Source of the DNA: a virus
Taxonomy: Duplodnaviria; Heunggongvirae; Uroviricota; Caudoviricetes
Reading direction: 5' to 3' (one strand)
IMG/VR virus record: IMGVR_UViG_2778261256_000005
Span: 1-34,588 of that record
DNA: 34,588 nt
Position 1 is the stretch's first letter. Each line of letters opens with the position of its first letter. A model generated the notes under the pieces. The model did no database searches. It saw only the letters and a program-made list of their open reading frames with translations, and was not told the origin of the DNA. This document shows positions 5,701 to 32,987 of this stretch, piece after piece. The position numbers and the translations under genes were made by a program.

Positions 5701-6096
<396 letters not shown>

Positions 6097-6118
6097 TCCT
6101 TTATATTGAGTGTATCGC

Positions 6119-6146
6119 CAACGCGCCTTCGGGCGCGTTTTATTTA
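6119..6146 (+). terminator. Rho-independent terminator after raiA
   Basis: Stem acgcgcc (6121-6127) / ggcgcgt (6132-6138), loop ttcg, followed by tttattt. Confidence 0.7.
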
Positions 6147-6239
6147 CCTGTAGCACATTGAAATAAAAGGATTTATCTCAACAAACGTCCACATAGTGAC
6201 CACATCGACAATACAAACCCCGTTTCGACGGGGTTTCTT

Positions 6240-7427
6240 ATGCGTGTCAATAAGTCCACAGAGCATTCCCGACATCCGCAAAAAATGTTAACATCCATAA
6301 AAACACCAAGCGTAATTATTATAATGAAATATATTTTTGAATACGGACTTTATCTCAGCATACTTATAGCGACAATATATGTCACTTCTAAGTTATTGGG
6401 TATTACACCTGCAAAACATAAATACGCCTCGCTTGATGGCTTACGTGGAATTTGTGCAGCAATGGTTGCTGTATTCCATCTTTACTGGAGAGCCGGAGGA
6501 GAATCAGATATATACTGGTCTCTTGAGTACATTACACTCAGCAATGTAAAACGCGCCATATATCTAACAGGAGAGTTATCTGTTGGGGTCTTTTTTATGC
6601 TGTCTGCTTTTTTATTTTTCAAAAAGGCACTAGCGGACTCCTTCGATGTAAAAAGCTTTGCAATTTCACGATTCATGCGAATTTACCCACCTGTAGTTGT
6701 TCTTTTATTTATAATATATATTGCAACATTTATCATGAATCCGGATAACCATACTCCAGTATCGCAATGGTTTATATCTTCATTACCATTTATATTCAAT
6801 CCGCCTGGCGCTAACATCAATGGTGTATCGCTCCAGATTGCCACATCTGGTGTGTTCTGGACGTTAGTCTGGGAATTACGCCTATACCTTGCAATTCCAT
6901 TTTTATATCTGATAATGAAAAACATCAAATATAAAGAAGCATTTGTTATTTTTTTAATGGGATGTGTTTTATTATTCAAGTATTTTATAAACAATGAACA
7001 ACACCTGAGTTATATAATGTATTTCCTTGCAGGATTTCTTGTCGCTACAATCAAGAGCAACAAGCGCCCATCAGATATAATCTGCGCTTTATTATTATTC
7101 GCAGCCATATATTTTACTCGACATGCTTACAACACTACAACTCCGCTTTATATGTTTATTGTTTTCTACACAATAAAGTGCGGATGTGATTACTTTGGCT
7201 TACTTACATCCCTGCCTGTAACTATGCTGGGAACCTGCAGTTTCTCCCTTTATTTAGTTCATGGGATAACTCAAACAGTATCTAAACATTATTTATATAG
7301 TGCAGGAAACTATGTTTGGCAGATTTGTGCAATTATTGCGGCAGGTATCATTGCGCCGGTTATGTACAAATATGTCGAAAGTCGCAGCATCATACATAAG
7401 CGTCCTCAACTTCAGATTGCAAAGTAG
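6240..7427 (+). CDS. Acyltransferase family 3 integral membrane protein (Oac/OafA-like, putative surface polysaccharide O-acetyltransferase)
   Basis: Strongly AT-rich ORF; multi-pass hydrophobic protein with LDGLRGICAAMVAVFHL, FFMLSAFL, RFMRIYPP and SFSLYLVH motifs typical of acyltransferase-3 family; start uncertain (ATG 6240, 6285 or 6324, none with a strong SD). Confidence 0.7.
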   Translation: MRVNKSTEHSRHPQKMLTSIKTPSVIIIMKYIFEYGLYLSILIATIYVTSKLLGITPAKHKYASLDGLRGICAAMVAVFHLYWRAGGESDIYWSLEYITLSNVKRAIYLTGELSVGVFFMLSAFLFFKKALADSFDVKSFAISRFMRIYPPVVVLLFIIYIATFIMNPDNHTPVSQWFISSLPFIFNPPGANINGVSLQIATSGVFWTLVWELRLYLAIPFLYLIMKNIKYKEAFVIFLMGCVLLFKYFINNEQHLSYIMYFLAGFLVATIKSNKRPSDIICALLLFAAIYFTRHAYNTTTPLYMFIVFYTIKCGCDYFGLLTSLPVTMLGTCSFSLYLVHGITQTVSKHYLYSAGNYVWQICAIIAAGIIAPVMYKYVESRSIIHKRPQLQIAK

Positions 7428-7434
7428 AACATTT

Positions 7435-7454
7435 GCGCCCCTGAACAGGGGCGC
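7435..7454. other. GC-rich stem-loop just after acyltransferase gene (terminator-like, no U-tract)
   Basis: gcgcccct (7435-7442) gaac aggggcgc (7447-7454), perfect 8-bp stem. Confidence 0.35.
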
Positions 7455-7519
7455 TATCCCACCACGCTGTTAAAATTTTGTTTCGTCTTACTTAGCATTT
7501 TTAAGTTGCCCATCGGAAA

Positions 7520-7790
7520 AACGTCACAACCATCACGCCCCACAAAAAAAACCATTAACCATCTGATTATCATGAATAAATGTTGTGATGGTAAAACCAT
7601 CACAAAACGTAACGTAAACCGTCACACCCTATAAATTCAGCGAGTTATAAAACAGAGTTGTGATGTTTTAAGGCCGTCACACTGTGATGCTCTTGTGATG
7701 CTCTTGTGATGGTTTTCAATATATGAATTTACTTATACATATCATATAGATAAATGATATTTTTTAAATCTGTGATGTTTGTGACGGTTT
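7520..7790. repeat. Cluster of iteron-like TGTGATG / CATCACA motifs incl. 9-bp inverted repeat and 11-bp tandem duplication, next to an AT-rich block
   Basis: GTGATG at 7585, 7660, 7684, 7695, 7706, 7772; CATCAC at 7531, 7598; inverted repeat ttgtgatgg-N5-ccatcacaa (7583-7605); tandem tgatgctcttg x2 (7686-7707); AT-rich stretch 7712-7770; no ORF >=60 aa in 7430-8440. Confidence 0.5.
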
Positions 7791-8420
7791 TCCGATGCTC
7801 CCCCTAAATTTTTGAAAAAATTAGAAGTGGTCAGAAATCACCCTGATTTGTTGGTGGTTTTGTATATATCTCTGTTAGTGATTTGAGCATTGGTGCAGTA
7901 CGTTAATGTAGGTATGGCTATAGTTCAGGCTGTGCAAAGTATTTCAGTTCCGCATCTCACGGTCATTCCGCGCCAGAACACATCAAATAAGGCCTTGTCA
8001 CTTTCTCCCGCTTACGTGATCCCGCTGCGGCCGTTACGTTAAAAGTCACGTAATCACTGTTAAACCCGCATGAAGTCCGGCACCGTCATTTTTCACCCAC
8101 GGCCGGTAATTGCACAAAAACTGTAATCCTTGAAATCTGTTTCACATATTTCAGTCGGTGAACTACCGCCAAAGCCCCAGCGCTGGCGCAGTCTGGCGAT
8201 GTGTTTTGTACCCCCAGAAAAACTGAAATCATTCTCAACACGAAAACCGCAGGCGGGTGCGGTGTAGCGCCGTTTTCGTCACTTCCGCCGTTATTTCGTC
8301 GTGGCAGGCTGCATCAGCGCCTTGCTGTGCTTTTAAAGCTAATTAAGTTGGGATTGGAGCGGGTGTAGATACTGTCGGCGCTCAGAATGCGTCTGGTGAG
8401 GTCTGGTGGGTGCGATAAAG

Positions 8421-8444
8421 CCCGCATGACGCGGGCTGGTTGAG
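8421..8444 (-). terminator. Putative terminator of the phage late (tail) operon
   Basis: Perfect 7-bp stem agcccgc/gcgggct (8421-8438) directly after stop of the 567-aa gene, followed on minus strand by ttat. Confidence 0.4.
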
Positions 8445-8447
8445 AAA

Positions 8448-10151
8448 TCAGGCGATAATGTTCTGGTACTTGCTCCGGGTCTGCCCGGCTTTCGTCGCCG
8501 TCTGTGTAAACTCGGCGGCATTGGTTGGAGTCCCAACGGTGGGGTGTGAATGGTTCGCGCATTGCTGCGCCAGTTCTGCCAGTAAATCAATGGTGTCCAG
8601 CATCATGGTCAGGGCGTTGATACTCTCGCTGCCAATATGGACTGTTGCCCCCATGACCTGCTGACCGCCAGCGGCCACTGATTTACGCAGTGCGGCAATC
8701 TTCTCTGTCAGGCTTTCGCCAACCTCCACGGCTACAGCACCGCCCACTTTAGTGGACTGCTGTCCTGCTATGTCCGTTTCTTCGTTTCCTTCAATACTGG
8801 CCAGCCTGTTACCTTTCACCGCCTGGCTATAATCACCGGCGCTTACCTGCTGGATGGCTCCGGCCAGCAGTGTGGTGGTTCCCAGTACCGTGGTTTTGTC
8901 CGTGGCTTTCACCGTGGTTTCACGGCTGACCAGTTCGCGCTGCTCCGTATCGGCTTTTACGGTTCGCGCCATCGATGTTTCACTGATGGTTTGATCGGTC
9001 TGCCTTACCCAGTCTCCAGCCTGAGTCACCCTCTGGGATACTTCTTCCCTCTGCTGCTGCAATTGCTCACCGGGTTTAACGTCCGGCAGGCTGGTACCAT
9101 CCGGCAGCGTCTGCCTGATAAAGGGTTTATCCGGTCTGCCTCCCGTGAATGCAACCTCAACCAGCGTCCCTTCTGGCGGAAACTGAAACATACCTGAATC
9201 ATTCCCGGCCATTGGCACCGGCAGCGGCACCGCTGAGTAAACAGGCGTCTGATTGTCCGGGTTTCCGTCTGCGTCAAGCAGCTGAACGTCCACGGCATAA
9301 CGTGGCCGGAATGGATCGGCAAAATTACCACTTTTCACGGGTTCAGTATGTGCCACCACTCTGGCCATCTTTGGCAGATGAAGCCCGGAAGCCAGTTCCG
9401 GATAATGGCTCTCAATCTGTCGTTGTGTCGGTGTTTTCTGAAGGGGGCTGCCTGTGACGCGGTTCCGGGGTGTCCAGGTGATAGTCATCGTGTCATTTGT
9501 AAGATGGACTTTGGTGACCCGTTCACCGTTAAGCTCAACGCCGGGTCGTATCGTCTGGATCACCGGTAACGTTATGGTATTCCCGCCAGCAGCCCCCTGG
9601 CTGAACTCTGCCGGCACTTCGACCGGACGACCGGTAAACAGTGACTTTTCAGCACCGCCGACGTAAAGCGAACCATCAGGCAACTGGTACCAGATGTAAT
9701 CCTGGATACTGAATGCCCTGCCCAGGTTGTTCAGCAACTGATAGCCGGTACCGTTATGGGTGAAATGGGGGATCGGAGTATCGCTGTAAGACACATCGGG
9801 TACACTGACACCGATCCCGCTGTTTTCCGTCAGCCAGCCGGCTACATCCCTTAATGTCGGGTGCTGAAATGAACATGGCCACATCCTTTCAAAAACACCG
9901 GCCAGCTCACGAATGAACAGACGCTGATAACCGTTTTCAGCTGGTTGTGAACGTTCAACATAACCGGTAAACCAGCGCAAAAGCAGGTCGGTATATCCCA
10001 CATCCAGCCGCACCAGTTTCCCGGTATAATCAGTGGTTGTCTCTGCGGTAATAAATCCCCGACCGCAACTGTTAAGCTCCAGTACCAGGCTGGCATCAGC
10101 CAGATGCACTTCATCCGTTGAAAGGTAAAGACGTTTAACTGGTTTCATCAT
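8448..10151 (-). CDS. Phage tail/baseplate protein, putative hub-spike (gpD/gpV- or VgrG-like), 567 aa
   Basis: Last gene of translationally coupled tail operon (start overlaps upstream stop, TAATG); C-terminal half is T/V/A/G-rich like spike beta-structure; family assignment is by position and composition only. Confidence 0.4.
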   Translation of the reverse strand: MMKPVKRLYLSTDEVHLADASLVLELNSCGRGFITAETTTDYTGKLVRLDVGYTDLLLRWFTGYVERSQPAENGYQRLFIRELAGVFERMWPCSFQHPTLRDVAGWLTENSGIGVSVPDVSYSDTPIPHFTHNGTGYQLLNNLGRAFSIQDYIWYQLPDGSLYVGGAEKSLFTGRPVEVPAEFSQGAAGGNTITLPVIQTIRPGVELNGERVTKVHLTNDTMTITWTPRNRVTGSPLQKTPTQRQIESHYPELASGLHLPKMARVVAHTEPVKSGNFADPFRPRYAVDVQLLDADGNPDNQTPVYSAVPLPVPMAGNDSGMFQFPPEGTLVEVAFTGGRPDKPFIRQTLPDGTSLPDVKPGEQLQQQREEVSQRVTQAGDWVRQTDQTISETSMARTVKADTEQRELVSRETTVKATDKTTVLGTTTLLAGAIQQVSAGDYSQAVKGNRLASIEGNEETDIAGQQSTKVGGAVAVEVGESLTEKIAALRKSVAAGGQQVMGATVHIGSESINALTMMLDTIDLLAELAQQCANHSHPTVGTPTNAAEFTQTATKAGQTRSKYQNIIA

Positions 10152-10696
10152 TAACCCAAAGCATCATTGACGGGCTTCAGCACCTTGCGTTCAAACCACG
10201 TCAGTTTTTCTTCATCTTCTCCGGCCGTCTGACCACCGGATTGTTCCGCGCTGCCGGTTGTCTGTTTTTTCGCAGTGGTTTTGCCGGTTGATCTGGCTTC
10301 CCGCTTTTCCTGTACGCTAATATGTTCCGCCAGCGTGAAAGTCACCATCCAGGACATTTTCCCGTCCTGCTGTGGTGCATCCAGCATTCCGCTGAATGTG
10401 GCCTCACGAAAATTCACCGCTCTGGCAACCTCATGCGCAACACGGTATGTCTGTCGTTTCCCGCTACTATCGGTAGCGCTGGCCAGTTCAAAGATACGCT
10501 TCAGAATCTCCGGATTTTTGAAAGGAATTTCGCCACTGATACGCAGCTCCTTTCCTTTTGCCCCCTGCTCAGATTTTGACGTTGCGCTGGTCTGCCCTGA
10601 CTGGTCTTTATCCTGAAACTGCTGTGAGACTGTCACGCGCATATTCTTCAGCTGTATGGCCTCGCCGTTAAGCGCCAGTGTCGGGATCGAAGTCAT
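10151..10696 (-). CDS. Phage tail protein, function unknown (181 aa)
   Basis: Within coupled tail operon; low-complexity K/Q/T/G-rich C-terminus; no recognisable motif. Confidence 0.4.
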   Translation of the reverse strand: MTSIPTLALNGEAIQLKNMRVTVSQQFQDKDQSGQTSATSKSEQGAKGKELRISGEIPFKNPEILKRIFELASATDSSGKRQTYRVAHEVARAVNFREATFSGMLDAPQQDGKMSWMVTFTLAEHISVQEKREARSTGKTTAKKQTTGSAEQSGGQTAGEDEEKLTWFERKVLKPVNDALG

Positions 10697-25446: not shown

Positions 25447-27228
25447 ATGGCTAAATATTCAGAAGAATTAAAAGGCGTTGCGCGGGCGCTTTATTTAAAA
25501 CGCTATACCCCGCAGGAAATTGCCAGCGAACTTAATCTGCCTAACAGACGCATTGTCTATTACTGGGCGGAGAAATATTGCTGGGCGGAATTACTCAGTC
25601 ATGAATCCACCGAAGATGCATTAAACCGTCGCATTCAGTCACTGACATTACGTGAAGGGAAATCGGAGCTGGAGCTGCGGGAGCTGGACAGTCTCGTTTC
25701 TCACCTGGTGAAACTACGTGCACAGCACAATAAGCATCAGGAAAAGCTGGCAGAAATTAAACACAGTGAAAATGATGCGCCGGCGCGTCAGTCCGGTGGC
25801 GACGAAAAGCCCCGGAAACGTGGCAAGTACAAAAAGAACGACATCAGCGGACTGACACAGGAAGATTTTGACCGGTTCGCGCTGGAGCACCTTTTCGGTT
25901 ACCAGAAACACCTTCGCGCTAATCTTCATCAGCAAATCAGGAACATCCTGAAAAGCCGCCAGATTGGTGCAACCTGGTATTTCTCAATAGAAGCCTTTGA
26001 GAATGCGGTCATGACAGGCGATCCGCAAATCTTCCTGTCCGCATCAAAGGCTCAGGCGGAAGTATTCCGCAGCTATATCGTCAACATTGCGGAGCAGTAT
26101 TTCGGCGTGGAGCTGACGGGAAACCCCATCCGCCTCTCCAACGGCGCGGAGATGCGATTCCTGTCCACCAACAAGAACACCGCCCAGTCATACAGCGGCC
26201 ATCTGTACTGCGATGAATATTTCTGGGTACCCAACTTTGCAAAATTAAACGAAGTGGCCAGCGCGATGGCCACACACGACAAATGGCGAACCACCTACTT
26301 TTCCACCCCCAGCAGCAAAACGCACCAGGCGTACCCGTTCTGGACTGGTGAAGAATGGAAGCGCGGTGACAAAAAACGCGCGCGCGTACAATTTCCCACG
26401 GAGAAGGAGCTGCGCGACGGTGGACGGTTATGTCCTGATGGGCAGTGGCGCTACATCATCACAATGGAAGACGCGATCGCAGGCGGGTTTAATCTCGCCA
26501 GCATCGGGAAGCTGCGCAACCGCTACAACCGCGACACTTTCAACATGCTGTATATGTGCGTGTTCGTGGACAGCAAGGACAGCGTATTTTCGTTCTCTCA
26601 CGTAGAACGCTGCTGTGTAGATCCGGATATCTGGGAGGATCATGACGAAAACCTGCCCCGGCCGTTCGGCAACCGTGAAGTGTGGGCGGGTTATGACCCG
26701 GCTCGCAGCGGAGACACCTCCACCTTCGTGATCATCGCGCCGCCGATAGTGGCCGGCGAAAAATTTCGGGTACTGCGTGTATTCCACTGGCAGGGGATGA
26801 ACTGGAAGTGGCAGGCGGCACAGATTAAGAAGCTGTTTGGCCAGTACAACATGACCTACATCGGCATTGATATCACTGGACTGGGTAGCGGTGTCTTTGA
26901 AGACGTTCAGCACTTTGCCATGCGTCAGGCAGTGGCGATCCGCTACGGCGTCGAGACCAAAAATCGTCTGGTGATGAAGATGATCGACGTTATCGAAGAC
27001 GGCCGCGTGGAATGGGATAAGGAGAAGACCGAAATCGCCGCCAGCTTTATGACCATCCGCCGTACGTCCACGGCCAGCGGCAACGCAATGACTTTCGTCG
27101 CCGATCGCACAGCAGAAACAGGACACGCAGACAGTTTCTGGGCTATCGCCCATGCCATTGACAACGAGCCATTAAACTTTGAAAACCAGCGAAAATCACG
27201 CTGGGGTAACTTAGGGAAAGCAGCATGA
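25447..27228 (+). CDS. Terminase large (ATPase) subunit, gpP-like
   Basis: ~593 aa; first ATG 25447 (track ORF starts at GTG 25432); followed by overlapping portal gene. Confidence 0.8.
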   Translation: MAKYSEELKGVARALYLKRYTPQEIASELNLPNRRIVYYWAEKYCWAELLSHESTEDALNRRIQSLTLREGKSELELRELDSLVSHLVKLRAQHNKHQEKLAEIKHSENDAPARQSGGDEKPRKRGKYKKNDISGLTQEDFDRFALEHLFGYQKHLRANLHQQIRNILKSRQIGATWYFSIEAFENAVMTGDPQIFLSASKAQAEVFRSYIVNIAEQYFGVELTGNPIRLSNGAEMRFLSTNKNTAQSYSGHLYCDEYFWVPNFAKLNEVASAMATHDKWRTTYFSTPSSKTHQAYPFWTGEEWKRGDKKRARVQFPTEKELRDGGRLCPDGQWRYIITMEDAIAGGFNLASIGKLRNRYNRDTFNMLYMCVFVDSKDSVFSFSHVERCCVDPDIWEDHDENLPRPFGNREVWAGYDPARSGDTSTFVIIAPPIVAGEKFRVLRVFHWQGMNWKWQAAQIKKLFGQYNMTYIGIDITGLGSGVFEDVQHFAMRQAVAIRYGVETKNRLVMKMIDVIEDGRVEWDKEKTEIAASFMTIRRTSTASGNAMTFVADRTAETGHADSFWAIAHAIDNEPLNFENQRKSRWGNLGKAA

Positions 27229-28244
27229 AAAAACGGAAATACAGGGAACGCCGCACCGCCAGCAAGCCGCGCCATATGAGCCTTATTACCCTGGGTAAAC
27301 CGGAACCCATTCTGACGACCGGCACAAACTACACAGACGTCTGGTATGACAATGAAGCGGAACACTGGACGCTCCCGATTGACCGGCTGGCGCTGGCGCA
27401 ACTGGTGAACCTGAACGCGCAGCACGGCGGTGTGCTGTATGCCCGTCGCAATATGGTGACGGCAAACTATAAAGACGGCGGACTGACGCATGAACAGCTT
27501 GGTGCAGCCGTGTTCGACTGGCTGACCTTCGGTGATGTGGCCATTCTGAAAGTGCGTAACGGCTGGGGGGATGTGGTGGCACTGTACCCGCTGCCGGCAC
27601 TCTATACCCGCCAGCGTAAGACCGGGGAGTTTGTGGTACTGCAGCAGGGTGAACCGATGATTTATCCGCCTGAAGATATTATTTTTCTCAGGCAGTACGA
27701 TCCGCAACAGGCGATTTATGGTCTGCCGGATTATATCAGCGGTATCCATTCTGCCCTGCTTAACGGTGAGGCAACAATTTTTCGTCGGCGTTACTACCAT
27801 AACGGCGGACACACAGGTGGCATGATCTACTGTAACGACCCAAATATGACTGATGAAGTGGAAGAAGAAATTATTCAGAAGCTGGAGCAGTCAAAGGGGA
27901 TCGGGAACTTCAGCACCATGTTTGTGAACATCCCCAAAGGCGATCCGGACGGCATCAAATTTATCCCGATTGGGGATATCAGCGCCAAAGATGAGTTTCA
28001 GAACATCAAGAGCATCAGCGCCCAGGACGTACTGACCGCGCATCGATTCCCGGCAGGACTGGCGGGGATTATCCCGACGAACGGCGCAGTAATGGGAGAT
28101 GTTGAGAAAGCGTCCAAAACCTACCGCAAAGCAGAAATTTTGCCCATTCAGCGCATGTTTACCGCCGCAGTGGAACAGGAAAGTGATGTACCGCCCCACC
28201 TGTACCTTAATTTCCTGAAAGACAGTGAGCTGGAAGGTGATTAA
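27225..28244 (+). CDS. Portal protein, gpQ-like
   Basis: 339 aa; ATGA overlap with terminase stop; size close to P2 Q. Confidence 0.8.
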   Translation: MKKRKYRERRTASKPRHMSLITLGKPEPILTTGTNYTDVWYDNEAEHWTLPIDRLALAQLVNLNAQHGGVLYARRNMVTANYKDGGLTHEQLGAAVFDWLTFGDVAILKVRNGWGDVVALYPLPALYTRQRKTGEFVVLQQGEPMIYPPEDIIFLRQYDPQQAIYGLPDYISGIHSALLNGEATIFRRRYYHNGGHTGGMIYCNDPNMTDEVEEEIIQKLEQSKGIGNFSTMFVNIPKGDPDGIKFIPIGDISAKDEFQNIKSISAQDVLTAHRFPAGLAGIIPTNGAVMGDVEKASKTYRKAEILPIQRMFTAAVEQESDVPPHLYLNFLKDSELEGD

Positions 28245-28297
28245 TGTTCGCAAAAAGGCTAAAATATCATCGTTTTCCAACTTCCGGAGCGATGGAT

Positions 28298-28573
28298 ATG
28301 CGGGTAATGAAGGTTTACTGTCCGGTATGTGAGGCAAGGGCTGTTATCAAAAAAACAGCCCGAAAACACAAGGAACTGTCGGATTTATATTGCGCGTGTA
28401 CCGATGTTGAATGTGGTCACACTTTTGTGATGAATATGACATTCTCACATACCATCAGCCCCAGCGCCAAATCCAGCGATGCGTTGATCGCCACTATCTG
28501 TAACAGCCTTGATATCCAGCAAAAGCAGCTGATGTTAAAGTTTCTGAGTCAGGACGGCACTGCTGCCGCATAG
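28298..28573 (+). CDS. Ogr/Delta-family zinc-finger late-gene activator
   Basis: CPVC-x21/23-CAC-x4-C-GHTF pattern aligns with P2 Ogr CPLC...C...C..TF; start ambiguous (ATG 28244 TAATG-coupled to portal, 28298 with GGAG, or 28307). Confidence 0.6.
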   Translation: MRVMKVYCPVCEARAVIKKTARKHKELSDLYCACTDVECGHTFVMNMTFSHTISPSAKSSDALIATICNSLDIQQKQLMLKFLSQDGTAAA

Positions 28574-28575
28574 AA

Positions 28576-28605
28576 AAAAGCACCGCTACCGGTGCTTTTA
28601 TTTTC
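28576..28605 (+). terminator. Rho-independent terminator after ogr-like gene
   Basis: Stem agcaccg (28579-28585) / cggtgct (28590-28596), loop ctac, T-run. Confidence 0.65.
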
Positions 28606-28678
28606 TGAGATGTAACAGATTCCCATCTATCAACGTCGATGAATGACCAAGTGATTAATAGTCCCCCCCTCCTAAACA

Positions 28679-28687
28679 TGATATTAT
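28679..28687 (+). promoter_or_regulatory. Candidate extended -10 promoter element (TGaTATTAT) for the glycosyltransferase cargo gene
   Basis: TG at 28679-28680, hexamer tattat 28682-28687, about 25 nt upstream of ATG with GGGAGG SD. Confidence 0.3.
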
Positions 28688-28712
28688 CTTTCCAAATTTT
28701 GGGAGGCATCTT

Positions 28713-29432
28713 ATGTTAATAGTCTCAGTTCTTAAATGTAGTAAAGAGTTTACCCCTAAACACGCCCAATGGCTTCATCGTCAGTTCAAAGATATTCCAT
28801 CTATATGTTTAACCGATGCAGATAATATTCCTGGAGTTAACACAACCCCTTTGCTTTATAACTGGCCGGGATGGTGGTCTAAAATTGAACTATTTAATCC
28901 TAATCACCCAGTCCTTGGAGACCAAGATTTACTCTATTTTGACGTAGATGTTGTGGTCACGGGAGATATTCATATTTTCGAAGGTGCGAAGAAATTTACA
29001 ATGCTTCGGGAGTTTAACCATGCCTCAAGAGTAAACTCATCAATAATGATGATTCCGGCGTCGATTAAAAAGACGATTTGGGAACAATTCATTATTGATC
29101 CTGAGAAAATTATGCGCAATTGTCAGACTGAAGACAAATGGGGTGATCAGGGATTTCTCGGTAGCATCATAAAACCAGCCCTATGGCAGGATATCATTCC
29201 TGGCTCAATTGTTAGTTATAAATGTGACATCGCCACCCCCTCGATGATTGGCTTCAATGCAAATTTAGCCTCTGAGGCTGCGACAGGGAAAGTCCCTGAT
29301 AATGTGGCGGTTGTTTGCTTTCATGGCAGTCCACGCCCCTGGCGTACTGGTTTTGATTGGGTTCCTTCGTTTTCCCTGCGGGATACTCTGTACGGTAAAT
29401 TAAAGAACTTTAAAATAAGAATGAAGCAATAA
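28713..29432 (+). CDS. GT8-family (GT-A fold, retaining) glycosyltransferase-like protein, 239 aa
   Basis: AT-rich ORF with strong SD (GGGAGG); motifs LLYFDVDVVV (DxD), WGDQGFL and VVCFHGSPRPW align with LgtC/WaaJ-type GT8 motifs (YLDIDVLV, QDQDILN, HYCGPAKPW); no signal peptide or TMD. Confidence 0.6.
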   Translation: MLIVSVLKCSKEFTPKHAQWLHRQFKDIPSICLTDADNIPGVNTTPLLYNWPGWWSKIELFNPNHPVLGDQDLLYFDVDVVVTGDIHIFEGAKKFTMLREFNHASRVNSSIMMIPASIKKTIWEQFIIDPEKIMRNCQTEDKWGDQGFLGSIIKPALWQDIIPGSIVSYKCDIATPSMIGFNANLASEAATGKVPDNVAVVCFHGSPRPWRTGFDWVPSFSLRDTLYGKLKNFKIRMKQ

Positions 29433-29500
29433 AGATAACGCCCCTATTGCTTCAATGTTCGCTCCTTCCCCTAACAATAAAGTTAGGCACTAGTGAACCG

Positions 29501-32158
29501 TTACTTTTCCCGGCCAAATATCCAGCAGCGGAATGTTTCCGGCATCCGTTGCATATCCCCTTTACCACGATTATGGCGCTCACTTACCGCGCTGCGCGTG
29601 GTGCTTTGTCTGATAAACCGGCGCTCATTGCCGTTTTTAAGCAGCTTTTTAATTTCCGTTAACGTGAACGGAATACGCTGCCGGTGTGCTGCGGCGACCT
29701 CTTCCATGTGATTGAAATTAACCGCGATTTCATTTTCATCTGATGAATGATTGATGCCATAAGGTGCCAGTTCATCCAAGTAATCAAACAGCTCCCAGAA
29801 CTCCTGCACCAGAGGATGATCCTTTTTAAGTGCCTGACAACGTTCAACGGCCAGCGCGGTGATGGCTTCACGCGTTTTTTCTATACGTTCAACCGGCACC
29901 GGTACAACAAGTGCAAGCGCCTCCAGCAAGCCCACAAGCTGCGCGTGATTCTTTGCAATACGGATATGGCGAATACTGCTATTAGACTCCAGCTCATTCC
30001 TAGCTCGCTCGTACCCCCTGCCGAACGTCTGCATGATTTCTTTTTCGCGCATGGTGGCCAGTAATGTGAATCCGGATACCTGGCTAACGGGGAGTTGTTC
30101 AAGTCGTTCTGCAGCGTGGCGCGTCTGAATGGACTGGCCGCGCTTGTCGGTATAGATGTGGATGATACGCTCCAGAAACGCCTTGCTGCCGTCTGTGTCG
30201 GCATTTTGCGCTATCACAATACTTCCCCTGAACGGCGGCTCATACGTCTCGTTATTGTTCGATTTGATACCCACGGCGCGGGAGGCACGACCGTTATACA
30301 GTGATTTCAGCTCGTCCCAGTCAAAAGCGCGTTGCTTGGCGTTATCGGTAGTACGGTCGCCCTCAATCAGCACAACCGGCAGATTACCGACCTGGGCGAA
30401 GTTACGGCCACGCGCGGCGGCGGTAGATTTAGATGGGTCAAACCCTTCGTATTCCTCACGGCCGGCGAGCTTCCAGAGAAATTCTATCAGCGTGGATTTA
30501 CCTGTCCCCGGCTCGCCCACGATTTCCAGAAACGGAAATGACTTGTCACGCTCGCGGATTTGTTCGGCAAACAGCGACCCCAGCCAGAACGCCAGCGCCA
30601 CATACCCTTTTTCACCAAATGCCGTCCAGATATCGTCTACCCAACCCGTAGTAAACTCGTTCAGCTTCGGATTCAGATCCAGCGCCGGCGTGAGGCTCAG
30701 GCTCTTAACGCTGGCACTGTTGATTTCGAAGTAATCCTCGTCGTTCATCTCATACAGCCGGCCATCGCAAACGGCCACGCGGTTAAACAACCAGGCGGCA
30801 TAATCCTTGTTATAGCCGATGAAATTCTGCGTCTTTACCTCTTTGATTTCAGGGAGGCGCATCTGGATGAACTTATCCAGCTGTTTGGTGCTGCCTGTGT
30901 ACACCGCCCCTTTGGCGATGTGCAGCAGACGCTTTTTGAACTCGGCGGAGCTGGTGAGCTGATTAGCCGTGAAAGTATCTTTCACGGCTGGCCGGTTAGG
31001 CATACTGACTTTCACGTAATACCAGGACTCGTCCGTAGGTTCAGACCGCTGAAAGTAAAGCGGCGTCAGCCAGCAGTTAGCTATTTCGGTCACGCCGCCT
31101 GACTCTTTAACCGCCCGTTCTTTGGCCTCCCACTCCATCACCACTTCGGTACCGGTATTGGTGATGCGCTCATAGGCTCGCATATACCTGTCCAGATCCA
31201 GCTCAAACCAGTACATGCGGGAGTTATGCTCAAAGTAGAACGAGTGCCACTCGTTATGCTGATGCATGAGCAGCGCTTTCTCAGTCGGGCTTTTTGCCAG
31301 AAGGAGATCGCCATAGTAGCGATAATTTTTAATGTCCGACTTACTGAACCGGTTACGTAACAACAGGTCATTCCAGTCCAGCGATGCCGATGATTTCACC
31401 GGCTGCGCGGCACGAGTTTTCCATCCTGCAGCATCACTACGGGCAGCGAACGCCAGTGTGTGCTTTGTGCCGGCTTTATCGCCGTCAAACGCCCATACAA
31501 GACGTGGACGTGGTTTTTCACCCAGTTCTTTGGCCAGCGTATCCAGTGCGGCCAGCGGATAGTTGTTACTGCTCAGTGTGGCAACTGCAGGTAACCCTGC
31601 CTGGCACAGACTCAGCGCGTTGAAGATTCCCTCAGTGATCCAGATTTCGTTCACTTCCTGCAGGTTGATAAAGGGAGGAACCCACCAGTGACCGACATAG
31701 CTTCCCCTGATGTTGGCTTTCTGCTTACCGAAGCGCTGCGGCTGGTCAATGATGCGCTCCCATGTTGCACCGCATGACAGCGAAAATCTGACCGTTGCCG
31801 ACCCCATGCCATCTTTCACGAATGCACCCTGGGTAAAACAGCCTTTTAATGGCTCAGTCTCCAGCCCTCTGGCCTCGCGCAGATACGCCTCAGCTACTGC
31901 ATGGGGGTTATCTTCTGTGGTCTGGTAACGTTTTGACCAGTCTTCAAAGATATCCGGATACAGCTCTTTCACGACAATCTGATGTGCGCAGTTATTTTCA
32001 CGGCCACATTTCAGAATCCAGGGCTTTTCTATGCTGGTAAATAATTCGCGCTTACGACAGGCAGGGCAAACGCCCTGCTGCAAATACTTATCCCGCTCTT
32101 TAAATTCAAAGTCCCGAACAAGACGGCGCACAACGTCCTGTTGTATCGTTTCGTTCAT
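29501..32158 (-). CDS. Replicative primase-helicase (N-terminal zinc finger, TOPRIM primase, D5-like P-loop NTPase)
   Basis: 885 aa; CPACx15CGRENNCAH zinc-binding pattern, acidic TOPRIM-like segment (WITEG ... DGDKAG), Walker A VGEPGTGKST. Confidence 0.8.
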   Translation of the reverse strand: MNETIQQDVVRRLVRDFEFKERDKYLQQGVCPACRKRELFTSIEKPWILKCGRENNCAHQIVVKELYPDIFEDWSKRYQTTEDNPHAVAEAYLREARGLETEPLKGCFTQGAFVKDGMGSATVRFSLSCGATWERIIDQPQRFGKQKANIRGSYVGHWWVPPFINLQEVNEIWITEGIFNALSLCQAGLPAVATLSSNNYPLAALDTLAKELGEKPRPRLVWAFDGDKAGTKHTLAFAARSDAAGWKTRAAQPVKSSASLDWNDLLLRNRFSKSDIKNYRYYGDLLLAKSPTEKALLMHQHNEWHSFYFEHNSRMYWFELDLDRYMRAYERITNTGTEVVMEWEAKERAVKESGGVTEIANCWLTPLYFQRSEPTDESWYYVKVSMPNRPAVKDTFTANQLTSSAEFKKRLLHIAKGAVYTGSTKQLDKFIQMRLPEIKEVKTQNFIGYNKDYAAWLFNRVAVCDGRLYEMNDEDYFEINSASVKSLSLTPALDLNPKLNEFTTGWVDDIWTAFGEKGYVALAFWLGSLFAEQIRERDKSFPFLEIVGEPGTGKSTLIEFLWKLAGREEYEGFDPSKSTAAARGRNFAQVGNLPVVLIEGDRTTDNAKQRAFDWDELKSLYNGRASRAVGIKSNNNETYEPPFRGSIVIAQNADTDGSKAFLERIIHIYTDKRGQSIQTRHAAERLEQLPVSQVSGFTLLATMREKEIMQTFGRGYERARNELESNSSIRHIRIAKNHAQLVGLLEALALVVPVPVERIEKTREAITALAVERCQALKKDHPLVQEFWELFDYLDELAPYGINHSSDENEIAVNFNHMEEVAAAHRQRIPFTLTEIKKLLKNGNERRFIRQSTTRSAVSERHNRGKGDMQRMPETFRCWIFGREK

Positions 32159-32417: not shown

Positions 32418-32987
32418 TTATTTCACACTGGCTATTTTTACAAGATACATCCAGACATAAGAAACAACTTTAGCCTGATGAATGGCATCATATAAAGCGT
32501 GATGTTTAACACCATCAAACTTAATAATATTACGAACATTCAGCCCAAGTGTTTTTGACAGTTCAACAACCGTTCTTACATCACGGTCATTCCAGTAGTA
32601 CCAAAGTGGATCGGCAAACCCGCATTTCTCTGATGCATTACGTAAAATAACATTGTCGAACGCTGCACTATTCCCCCATACCTGTACTTTAGATGGGTCA
32701 GAATGCTCAGTAATAAAAGCTTCCAGATTAGCTAACGTCAGAGGCAAGTCCAGACAATCGTCATTAAGCAGCTCGCTACGCGCTTCGGCATCCTGACGCA
32801 TCCACCATAATACGGTTTCTGACCCCATAGTGAGACCGTGGCCTACACAGCTGCCCAGGCTGACACGTTGATAAAACTGTTCACCCATTTCGCCAGTTTC
32901 AGGGTCAAAGAATACAGCACCGATAGAAGCAATCGCAGAAGTCGGTTTATTATCCATTGTTTCAAGATCAATCATTAAATGTTTCAT
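32418..32987 (-). CDS. DnaQ-like 3-prime-5-prime exonuclease (DEDDh family)
   Basis: 189 aa, N-terminal MIDLETM Exo I motif, downstream H..D motif; AAGGA SD. Confidence 0.65.
   Translation of the reverse strand: MKHLMIDLETMDNKPTSAIASIGAVFFDPETGEMGEQFYQRVSLGSCVGHGLTMGSETVLWWMRQDAEARSELLNDDCLDLPLTLANLEAFITEHSDPSKVQVWGNSAAFDNVILRNASEKCGFADPLWYYWNDRDVRTVVELSKTLGLNVRNIIKFDGVKHHALYDAIHQAKVVSYVWMYLVKIASVK

Follow-up and report, generated by a model that had tools for sequence, protein, structure and literature searches.

A 34,588-nucleotide stretch of DNA from a tailed-phage record (Caudoviricetes; IMG/VR record IMGVR_UViG_2778261256_000005, positions 1 to 34,588; hereafter the window) contains, at 28713-29432 on the + strand, a single open reading frame (ORF) for a glycosyltransferase (GT) of 239 residues, which is listed in RefSeq as WP_000909748.1 with the label "hypothetical protein". 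On the basis of its sequence and predicted structure, the window GT is a soluble, GT8-like GT-A enzyme with a predicted intact catalytic site. Its gene appears to be a lone, AT-rich moron with a putative promoter of its own, situated in the cargo site between the portal/ogr genes and the replication gene of a P2-family Escherichia coli prophage. On balance, and with limited confidence, we think it probable that the enzyme acts in lysogenic conversion by adding a hexose to lipopolysaccharide (LPS).

The fold and family of the enzyme were assigned by profile and structure comparisons. The hidden Markov model (HMM) of PHROG 1962, annotated "glycosyltransferase", matched the window GT at 5.8e-81 (residues 1-223 against profile positions 1-224 of 230). 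The AlphaFold model (predicted local distance difference test score 96.4, predicted template modeling score 0.92) showed a GT-A Rossmann-like fold superposable on GT8 enzymes of solved structure; in the comparison with LgtC that a preliminary description of this DNA had proposed, Foldseek placed LgtC at the top (4e-8), followed by further GT8 structures. In an alignment of 43 sequences, residues D77, D79, G144-D145, S168, K170, H204-G205, and P207 were invariant, and Q146, R208-P209-W210, and a WPGWW.K motif were nearly so. The GT8-type DxD and DQ motifs named in that description are thus borne out (D77/D79 and GDQ 144-146), whereas its HxGxxxPW motif needs correction to HGSPRPW (204-210). The profile of the 43-sequence alignment retrieved GT8 chains only from the PDB (Gat1 at 3e-7, glycogenin at 2e-5, and GlyE at 3e-3), with the DxD, GDQG, and H..KPW elements in register (DAD, GDQG, and H..KPW in glycogenin); a PDB search with the single sequence of the window GT gave no match. 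The enzyme is probably metal dependent (DxD) and is predicted to be retaining. Scans of the window GT at E ≤ 1 returned no Pfam family, and so no PF01501, no NCBIfam entry, including any Waa model, and no PADLOC-DB v2 defense model, and none of its ∼600 homologues carried a precomputed Pfam domain; the searches with Glyco_transf_8 and defense models proposed earlier were thus negative, and the HMM match is to PHROG 1962. Because a Pfam match is lacking for the enzyme and for the ∼600 homologues, we call it GT8-like rather than a GT8 member; its sequence appears too divergent for filing in Pfam GT8.

The genomic settings of the family were compared across ∼100 loci from IMG/VR, genomes, and metagenomes by six-frame HMM searches (loci are cited by their L numbers). 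Short and intermediate forms have 4-24 residues after the HGxPRPW motif. Long forms, including the window GT, have 28-43 residues that constitute a K/R-rich tail of net charge +3 to +11. An MptE-like gene was present within 2.5 kb on the same strand, and was sometimes fused to the GT gene, in 51 of the 69 loci with non-long forms, and an FkbM-type methyltransferase gene was nearby in 16 of the same 69. The MptE-like partner was absent from every long-form locus (29 of 29), and no MptE/WaaZ-like partner homologue was found anywhere in the window; by sequence, the window GT is assigned to the partner-less subclade. A clean clade of long forms was considered and discarded, being recovered in 5 of 40 bootstraps only, with a 220-residue short-tailed group nesting inside. 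Some long forms reside at a prophage end and converge with the tail genes (Chlobot, L004, and L019-21), others come after tail-fiber assembly genes (L006-9 and L022-28), and those of L016-18, whose tail module is the same as that of the window phage, occupy the left prophage end. Convergence with the late operon is frequent (L002, L004, and L019-21). Because partners are missing from all 29 loci and the sites lie at prophage ends or beside tail-fiber/assembly genes, the long form appears to behave as a moron. Its distribution is sporadic, with 8 loci in a set of 185,579 species represented by one genome each, and it also occurs as a single-gene orphan amid housekeeping genes in Salmonella (beside flhDC), Shimwellia, Vitreoscilla, and Yokenella; Pantoea has a similar chromosomal orphan of the short-tailed form. 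Since long forms exist as chromosomal orphans, the enzyme would need no phage proteins.

The acceptor is suggested by Pectobacterium sp. B1J-3, in which a homologue of the window GT (49% identity) lies inside a co-directional waa core operon with the following gene order:

waaF - waaC - waaL - waaQ - waaG-like GT4 gene - waaP - phosphoethanolamine transferase gene - GT8 gene (WaaI/J-like) - WaaZ_KDO_III-like gene - the homologue - GT25 gene

RfaQ (waaQ) and waaP scored above cutoff in this array, and the WaaZ_KDO_III-like protein showed a faint MptE-like signal. In 37 of 40 bootstraps, the Pectobacterium copy was placed among the lone long forms. The preliminary description had regarded the presence of the same gene in a chromosomal LPS cluster as an objection to its interpretation as cargo. 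Such a presence was found once, in this operon, and it argues for an LPS function, not against cargo status. LPS modification, raised earlier as a plausible function, has gained from the waa-operon homologue among the long forms and from an Acyl_transf_3 gene in the same prophage; given these two observations, an LPS substrate is now favored over the earlier view that a different one was equally possible. The LPS core is the adsorption site of both P2 and P1, and the lipid-linked core is the substrate of LgtC and the Waa GT8 enzymes, which associate peripherally with the membrane. A literature search on prophage glycosyltransferases in connection with LPS core or lysogenic conversion returned nothing relevant.

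The gene, its signals, and its immediate neighbors are as follows:

28713-29432, + strand: coding sequence of the GT8-like GT-A glycosyltransferase, with catalytic D77-x-D79, G144-D145-Q146, and H204-G-x-P-R208-P-W210, and a polybasic tail at residues 219-239
28701-28706, + strand: Shine-Dalgarno (SD) sequence GGGAGG, 6 nt ahead of the ATG, read from the sequence
28679-28687, + strand: extended -10 element TGaTATTAT, read from the sequence; the -35 is weak
28663-28669, + strand: C7 homopolymer tract just 5' of the -10, at the expected place of a -35
28576-28599, + strand: intrinsic-terminator-like hairpin and T-run, with a 10-pair stem including 5 G-C pairs, followed by ATTTTCTGAG
28244-28573, + strand: ogr/Delta-like zinc-finger late activator gene, the left flank (PF04606, 1.1e-15), directly after the portal gene (27225-28244)
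29422-29454, no strand assigned: hairpin between the convergent GT and primase genes, overlapping the GT stop codon and terminator-like on the - strand (14 pairs)
29501-32158, - strand: gene for an 885-residue toprim/DUF5906 primase-helicase, the replication gene and right flank (phrog_1139, "DNA primase"), not a gpA homologue

The GC content of the GT gene is 41.0% (37.9% at third codon positions, GC3), versus 51.9% for the prophage and a GC3 of 60-65% in the neighboring genes, and by this low value the gene stands out as foreign in the 52%-GC prophage; low GC is likewise usual for enterobacterial waa and rfb genes. No transmembrane segment was detected (the highest Kyte-Doolittle 19-residue mean was 1.0). 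The segment after HGxPRPW has a net charge of +5, compared to +2 for the entire protein. An amphipathic helix in this tail was considered and dropped because the helical hydrophobic moment was just 0.21; the tail is better described as polybasic with hydrophobic residues interspersed. The preliminary description was accurate in reporting a single, strongly AT-rich gene without a membrane segment, preceded by an SD sequence and an extended -10. The promoter assignment depends on that -10 only, because a two-hexamer sigma-70 scan called no + strand promoter upstream of the gene. When the upstream regions of ten long-form loci were aligned, homology began only at the ribosome-binding site, except for the Salmonella orphan L097 (83% identical), which has a similar -10 and SD; for that reason no conserved promoter seems to travel with the gene in general. 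The C7 tract recalls phase-variable lipooligosaccharide genes. Phase variation at this tract was not supported, as its length is identical in 18 E. coli genomes. The hairpin at 28576-28599 is predicted to end the terminase-portal-ogr transcription unit and to insulate the GT cargo gene.

The position of the gene between ogr and the 3' end of the replication gene agrees with the earlier account, and so does its placement as cargo at the position syntenic with P2 old/tin: the order is terminase-portal (P-Q)-(ogr)-GT-replication gene, and family members in the true P2-like phages L029-31 form part of a cassette between portal and gpA. Two corrections apply. The gene was described as opposite in orientation to both flanks; it is convergent only with the primase gene and shares its strand with terminase, portal, and ogr. 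A P2-like backbone was implied, and a replication gene indeed forms the right flank, but it encodes a toprim/DUF5906 primase-helicase and not P2 gpA, so the synteny carries that caveat. Rousset et al. (2022) place the P2 hotspot between gpA and gpQ and describe it as a store of anti-phage genes, old and tin among them (PMC9122126). The window cargo shares with old/tin the slot beside the portal gene and opposite the replication gene, and it differs in that Old and Tin work as exclusion proteins inside the cell and are not glycosyltransferases, and in that ogr is interposed between portal and cargo. The P2 cos 19-mer was not found at ≤3 mismatches.

From the gene's anatomy, fold, catalytic motifs, family membership, and genomic contexts we infer its expression, donor sugar, acceptor, membrane association, and phenotype as follows. 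The enzyme would be made in the lysogen, and its polybasic C-terminal tail would tether it to the inner membrane on the cytoplasmic side. It would pass a hexose from a uridine diphosphate-sugar onto a lipid-linked envelope glycan, most likely the LPS core oligosaccharide, with the undecaprenyl diphosphate-linked O-unit as second choice. The exported LPS would then be altered, the receptor of LPS-core-dependent phages would be masked, and serology may change.

A homologue of the window GT is PmgQ of phage P1 (equivalent to HdmD of P7), which was recovered by tblastn (40% identity over 92%, 2e-39) and matched the HMM of the window-GT family at 2.3e-76. The glycosyltransferase annotation is not new, being present already in PHROGs and in RefSeq for P1. 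The two enzymes share the WPGWW.K, DxD, GDQG, and HGxPRPW motifs and carriage by a phage, in the case of PmgQ an LPS-core-adsorbing enterobacterial phage. PmgQ has 19 residues after the last motif versus 29 in the window GT, and its gene closes the C1-repressed operon pmgN-pmgO-pmgP-ppp-pmgQ together with the MptE/WaaZ-like PmgO and PmgP, whereas the window GT is encoded alone, with its polybasic tail and its own transcription unit. The P7 annotators named the equivalent operon hdm, for "head morphogenesis". PmgO and PmgP (P1 locus L095, 5144-7702) are paralogous members of the MptE-like family (PF01973, sub-threshold), a family that recurs beside the GT gene in many loci. Counterparts of PmgO/PmgP are carried by the Citrobacter rodentium phage phiNP (L005, 6882-8666), in which the MptE-like and GT genes are located between terminase and the lysis genes, and by the P2-like L029-31 (5827-7660); a cassette of two MptE-like genes plus a GT8-like gene is conserved across P1-, lambda-, and P2-type phages. 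The WaaZ_KDO_III-like neighbor in Pectobacterium matched the HMM of the phage partners at 6e-8 and PmgP at 1e-5, which links the phage partners, by distant sequence similarity, to the family named by Pfam for the third-Kdo (KDO III; 3-deoxy-D-manno-octulosonic acid) transferase WaaZ. PmgQ and its relatives form an uncharacterised phage family of >600 members. Searches of the literature on pmgQ, pmgO, and pmgP yielded nothing functional beyond non-essentiality.

A more speculative proposal, which we put forward tentatively, is that the PmgQ family and its MptE/WaaZ-like partners (PmgO and PmgP) make up a phage pathway, widespread but so far unrecognised, for remodeling the LPS core from the cytoplasmic side. 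The partnered short forms, which occur in the early operon of P1, in the Q-A hotspot of P2, and in the capsid-connector gap of many siphoviruses, would act in lytic growth, and the lone long form would be a streamlined, lysogen-expressed exclusion gene that masks the receptor and belongs to a cargo class invisible to current defense-finding tools.

Several observations weigh against hexose transfer to LPS by a lysogen-expressed enzyme. The waa-cluster copy is one case and lacks close relatives (best 54% identity). CRISPR interference showed pmgO, pmgP, ppp, and pmgQ to be non-essential for P1 plaques (PMC10695390). The closest PDB relatives by sequence profile (Gat1, glycogenin, and GlyE) act on proteins or protein-linked glycans, and the Pfam and NCBIfam Waa models fail to recognize the enzyme. 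The putative promoter is a sequence match, and the gene may be expressed late by read-through since it is co-directional with the late operon. Given the low helical moment of the tail, any membrane binding by it would be electrostatic. Finally, in HK97-like siphoviruses an MptE-like gene and a short GT gene form a pair between the major capsid and gp6-like connector genes, after portal and protease, and judged by gene neighborhood the location of most short-form relatives between capsid and head-tail connector genes fits virion modification better.

That last placement points to O-glycosylation of the virion or other phage proteins (capsid or tail fiber), which would alter stability or host recognition in the manner of mycobacteriophage glycosyltransferases. 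Further pointers are the fusion of some short forms to MptE/Maf-like domains (Maf proteins glycosylate flagellin), the "head morphogenesis" name of the P7 operon, the protein-modifying activity of the top PDB profile matches, and the tail-fiber genes that often adjoin long forms. We nevertheless regard this explanation as unlikely for the window GT: long-form orphans occur without nearby phage genes and one copy sits in a waa operon, the long-form gene is convergent with the late structural operon in several prophages, the window gene is behind a terminator with its own -10 element, partners are missing from the long-form loci, and pmgO, pmgP, and pmgQ of P1 are dispensable for plaques. Metagenomic HK97-like loci with the capsid-connector pair include L092 (3300-4545), L048 (6297-7582), L011 (6828-8583), and ∼25 others from IMG/VR; the gap is an unusual place for glycan enzymes, and an FkbM methyltransferase is sometimes included.

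A different envelope glycan as acceptor, such as the O-antigen unit, enterobacterial common antigen, colanic acid or capsule, or osmoregulated periplasmic glucans, would follow the same logic of surface remodeling, and we consider it improbable as well. The sole biosynthetic cluster found to hold a long form is the waa core operon, not rfb, wec, or cps, and the orphans span genera with unrelated O-antigens, which is a better fit for a conserved acceptor such as the core. Least probable is a non-surface defense or counter-defense role, in which the enzyme would block competitors by modifying an intracellular target (a host factor, phage DNA or protein, or a signaling nucleotide): it is suggested only by the hotspot, since the gpQ-gpA locus is a documented store of anti-phage genes and the family member in L029 shares it with a 1354-residue KAP-family NTPase, and GT-A toxins that glucosylate proteins do exist, but no PADLOC model matched, glycosyltransferases went unmentioned in both P2/P4 hotspot surveys and in the available supplements of the first, the gene also occupies non-hotspot sites (tail fibers, acetyltransferases, and LPS genes), and the polybasic tail and waa context point to a membrane glycolipid. 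The KAP-family P-loop NTPase itself (L029, 8154-12218, - strand), beside the GT cassette in the portal-gpA hotspot, is a possible defense gene.

Transfer of a hexose to LPS would give the window GT counterparts of two kinds, with the LgtC and Waa GT8 enzymes sharing its mechanism and TarP, Gtr, and Oac sharing its biological role. Identity with LgtC and WaaI/WaaJ/WaaO/WaaR/WaaT is just 12-14%, with no PF01501/PF08437 or NCBIfam Waa match; those enzymes have ∼280-340 residues versus 239, and the nucleotide-binding N-terminus and the WPGWWSK motif of the window GT are specific to its family. Glycogenin and Gat1 (the Skp1 alpha-galactosyltransferase) are eukaryotic enzymes with protein or a protein-linked glycan as acceptor, whereas the contexts of the lone forms give no pointer to a protein acceptor. 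The GtrABC and Oac/OafA systems are similarly prophage-borne and AT-rich, lie at prophage ends or near tail genes, and alter the LPS receptor; the likeness to Oac/OafA extends to the Acyl_transf_3 gene carried by the window prophage itself. Gtr systems comprise three membrane proteins (the flippase GtrA, the GT2 enzyme GtrB, and a serotype-specific GT-C) that work at the periplasmic face via undecaprenyl phosphate-glucose. The window GT, in contrast, is a single soluble enzyme whose predicted site of action is the cytoplasmic face, while the core/O-unit is being assembled, and no Gtr-like ORFs adjoin its gene, the neighbors of which are ogr and primase. Staphylococcus aureus TarP, reportedly prophage-encoded, is a single soluble GT-A enzyme that changes the decoration of a surface glycopolymer, itself a phage receptor. 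Like the window GT, it is a single soluble prophage-borne glycosyltransferase, but it is GT2-type and inverting, has the wall teichoic acid of a Gram-positive host as its substrate, and has no sequence relationship with the window GT. As judged by these sequence and model searches, the window GT is not a member of the Gtr, Waa, or PADLOC families.

The window represents a P2-family E. coli prophage in the raiA terminator, between raiA and pheL. This prophage was detected in 18 of 5426 complete E. coli genomes, identical in each and mostly from pig isolates, so that no alternative cargo at the GT locus was seen in E. coli, the backbone being confined to those 18. Its left end contains two further features:

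6126-6141, + strand: attL core CCTTCGGGCGCGTTTT (= raiA terminator), a 16-nt exact repeat with L001 26624-26639
6324-7427, + strand: Acyl_transf_3 membrane acyltransferase gene, a second AT-rich cargo (PF01757, 5.9e-29; 36.4% GC), inside attL at the left prophage end

The prophage starts at 6126 because the att core is repeated after int, outside the window. The acyltransferase is of the OafA/Oac class (RefSeq, "acyltransferase family protein") and its gene lies between raiA and the phage spike gene; in the relatives L016-18, the GT gene is in the left-end site held here by the Acyl_transf_3 gene. Within the 1-kb gene-free gap between the acyltransferase and spike genes (7428-8447), positions 7500-7810 contain ∼10-12 copies of TTGTGATGGTTTT / AAAACCATCACAA in both orientations, including a perfect palindrome at 7583-7605, and this repeat could be a protein-binding array. 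The backbone departs from canonical P2 in having ogr right after the portal gene, a primase-helicase in place of gpA, and an HP1 ORF34-like baseplate protein (10151-10696). A 3'-5' exoribonuclease Rv2179c-like gene (32418-32987, - strand; PF16473, 1.1e-67) adjoins the primase gene in the early operon. In other prophages, long forms are accompanied by additional glycan-related genes. In the E. albertii/E. coli-type prophages L022-L028 (e.g., L026, 5817-6422), a gene for a hexapeptide-repeat acetyltransferase of ∼200 residues, itself downstream of tail-fiber assembly genes, precedes the long GT gene; in the Salmonella prophage L098 a hexapeptide acetyltransferase gene follows it, and in L007 a fragmented GT4 gene is downstream. 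Taken together, such groupings resemble a small island of glycan-modifying genes at the end of the prophage.

Most known cases in which phages alter LPS involve the membrane-bound Gtr and Oac systems, which act on O-antigen; a soluble, LPS-editing enzyme encoded by one gene in the P2 cargo slot would add a new form of lysogenic conversion. The gene was missed by PADLOC, Pfam, and NCBIfam even though it resides in a phage locus now mined for defense genes. If our interpretation is correct, soluble one-gene editing during cytoplasmic LPS assembly would offer phages another, simpler way of masking the receptor, and it could affect phage-therapy host range and serotyping. It would also provide the first testable function for P1 pmgO, pmgP, and pmgQ, which have been "putative morphogenetic" genes since the genome was annotated, and it could account for the related genes in the head modules of many environmental phages. 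Should the prediction fail, the GT gene would still offer a clean entry to this uncharacterised phage family.

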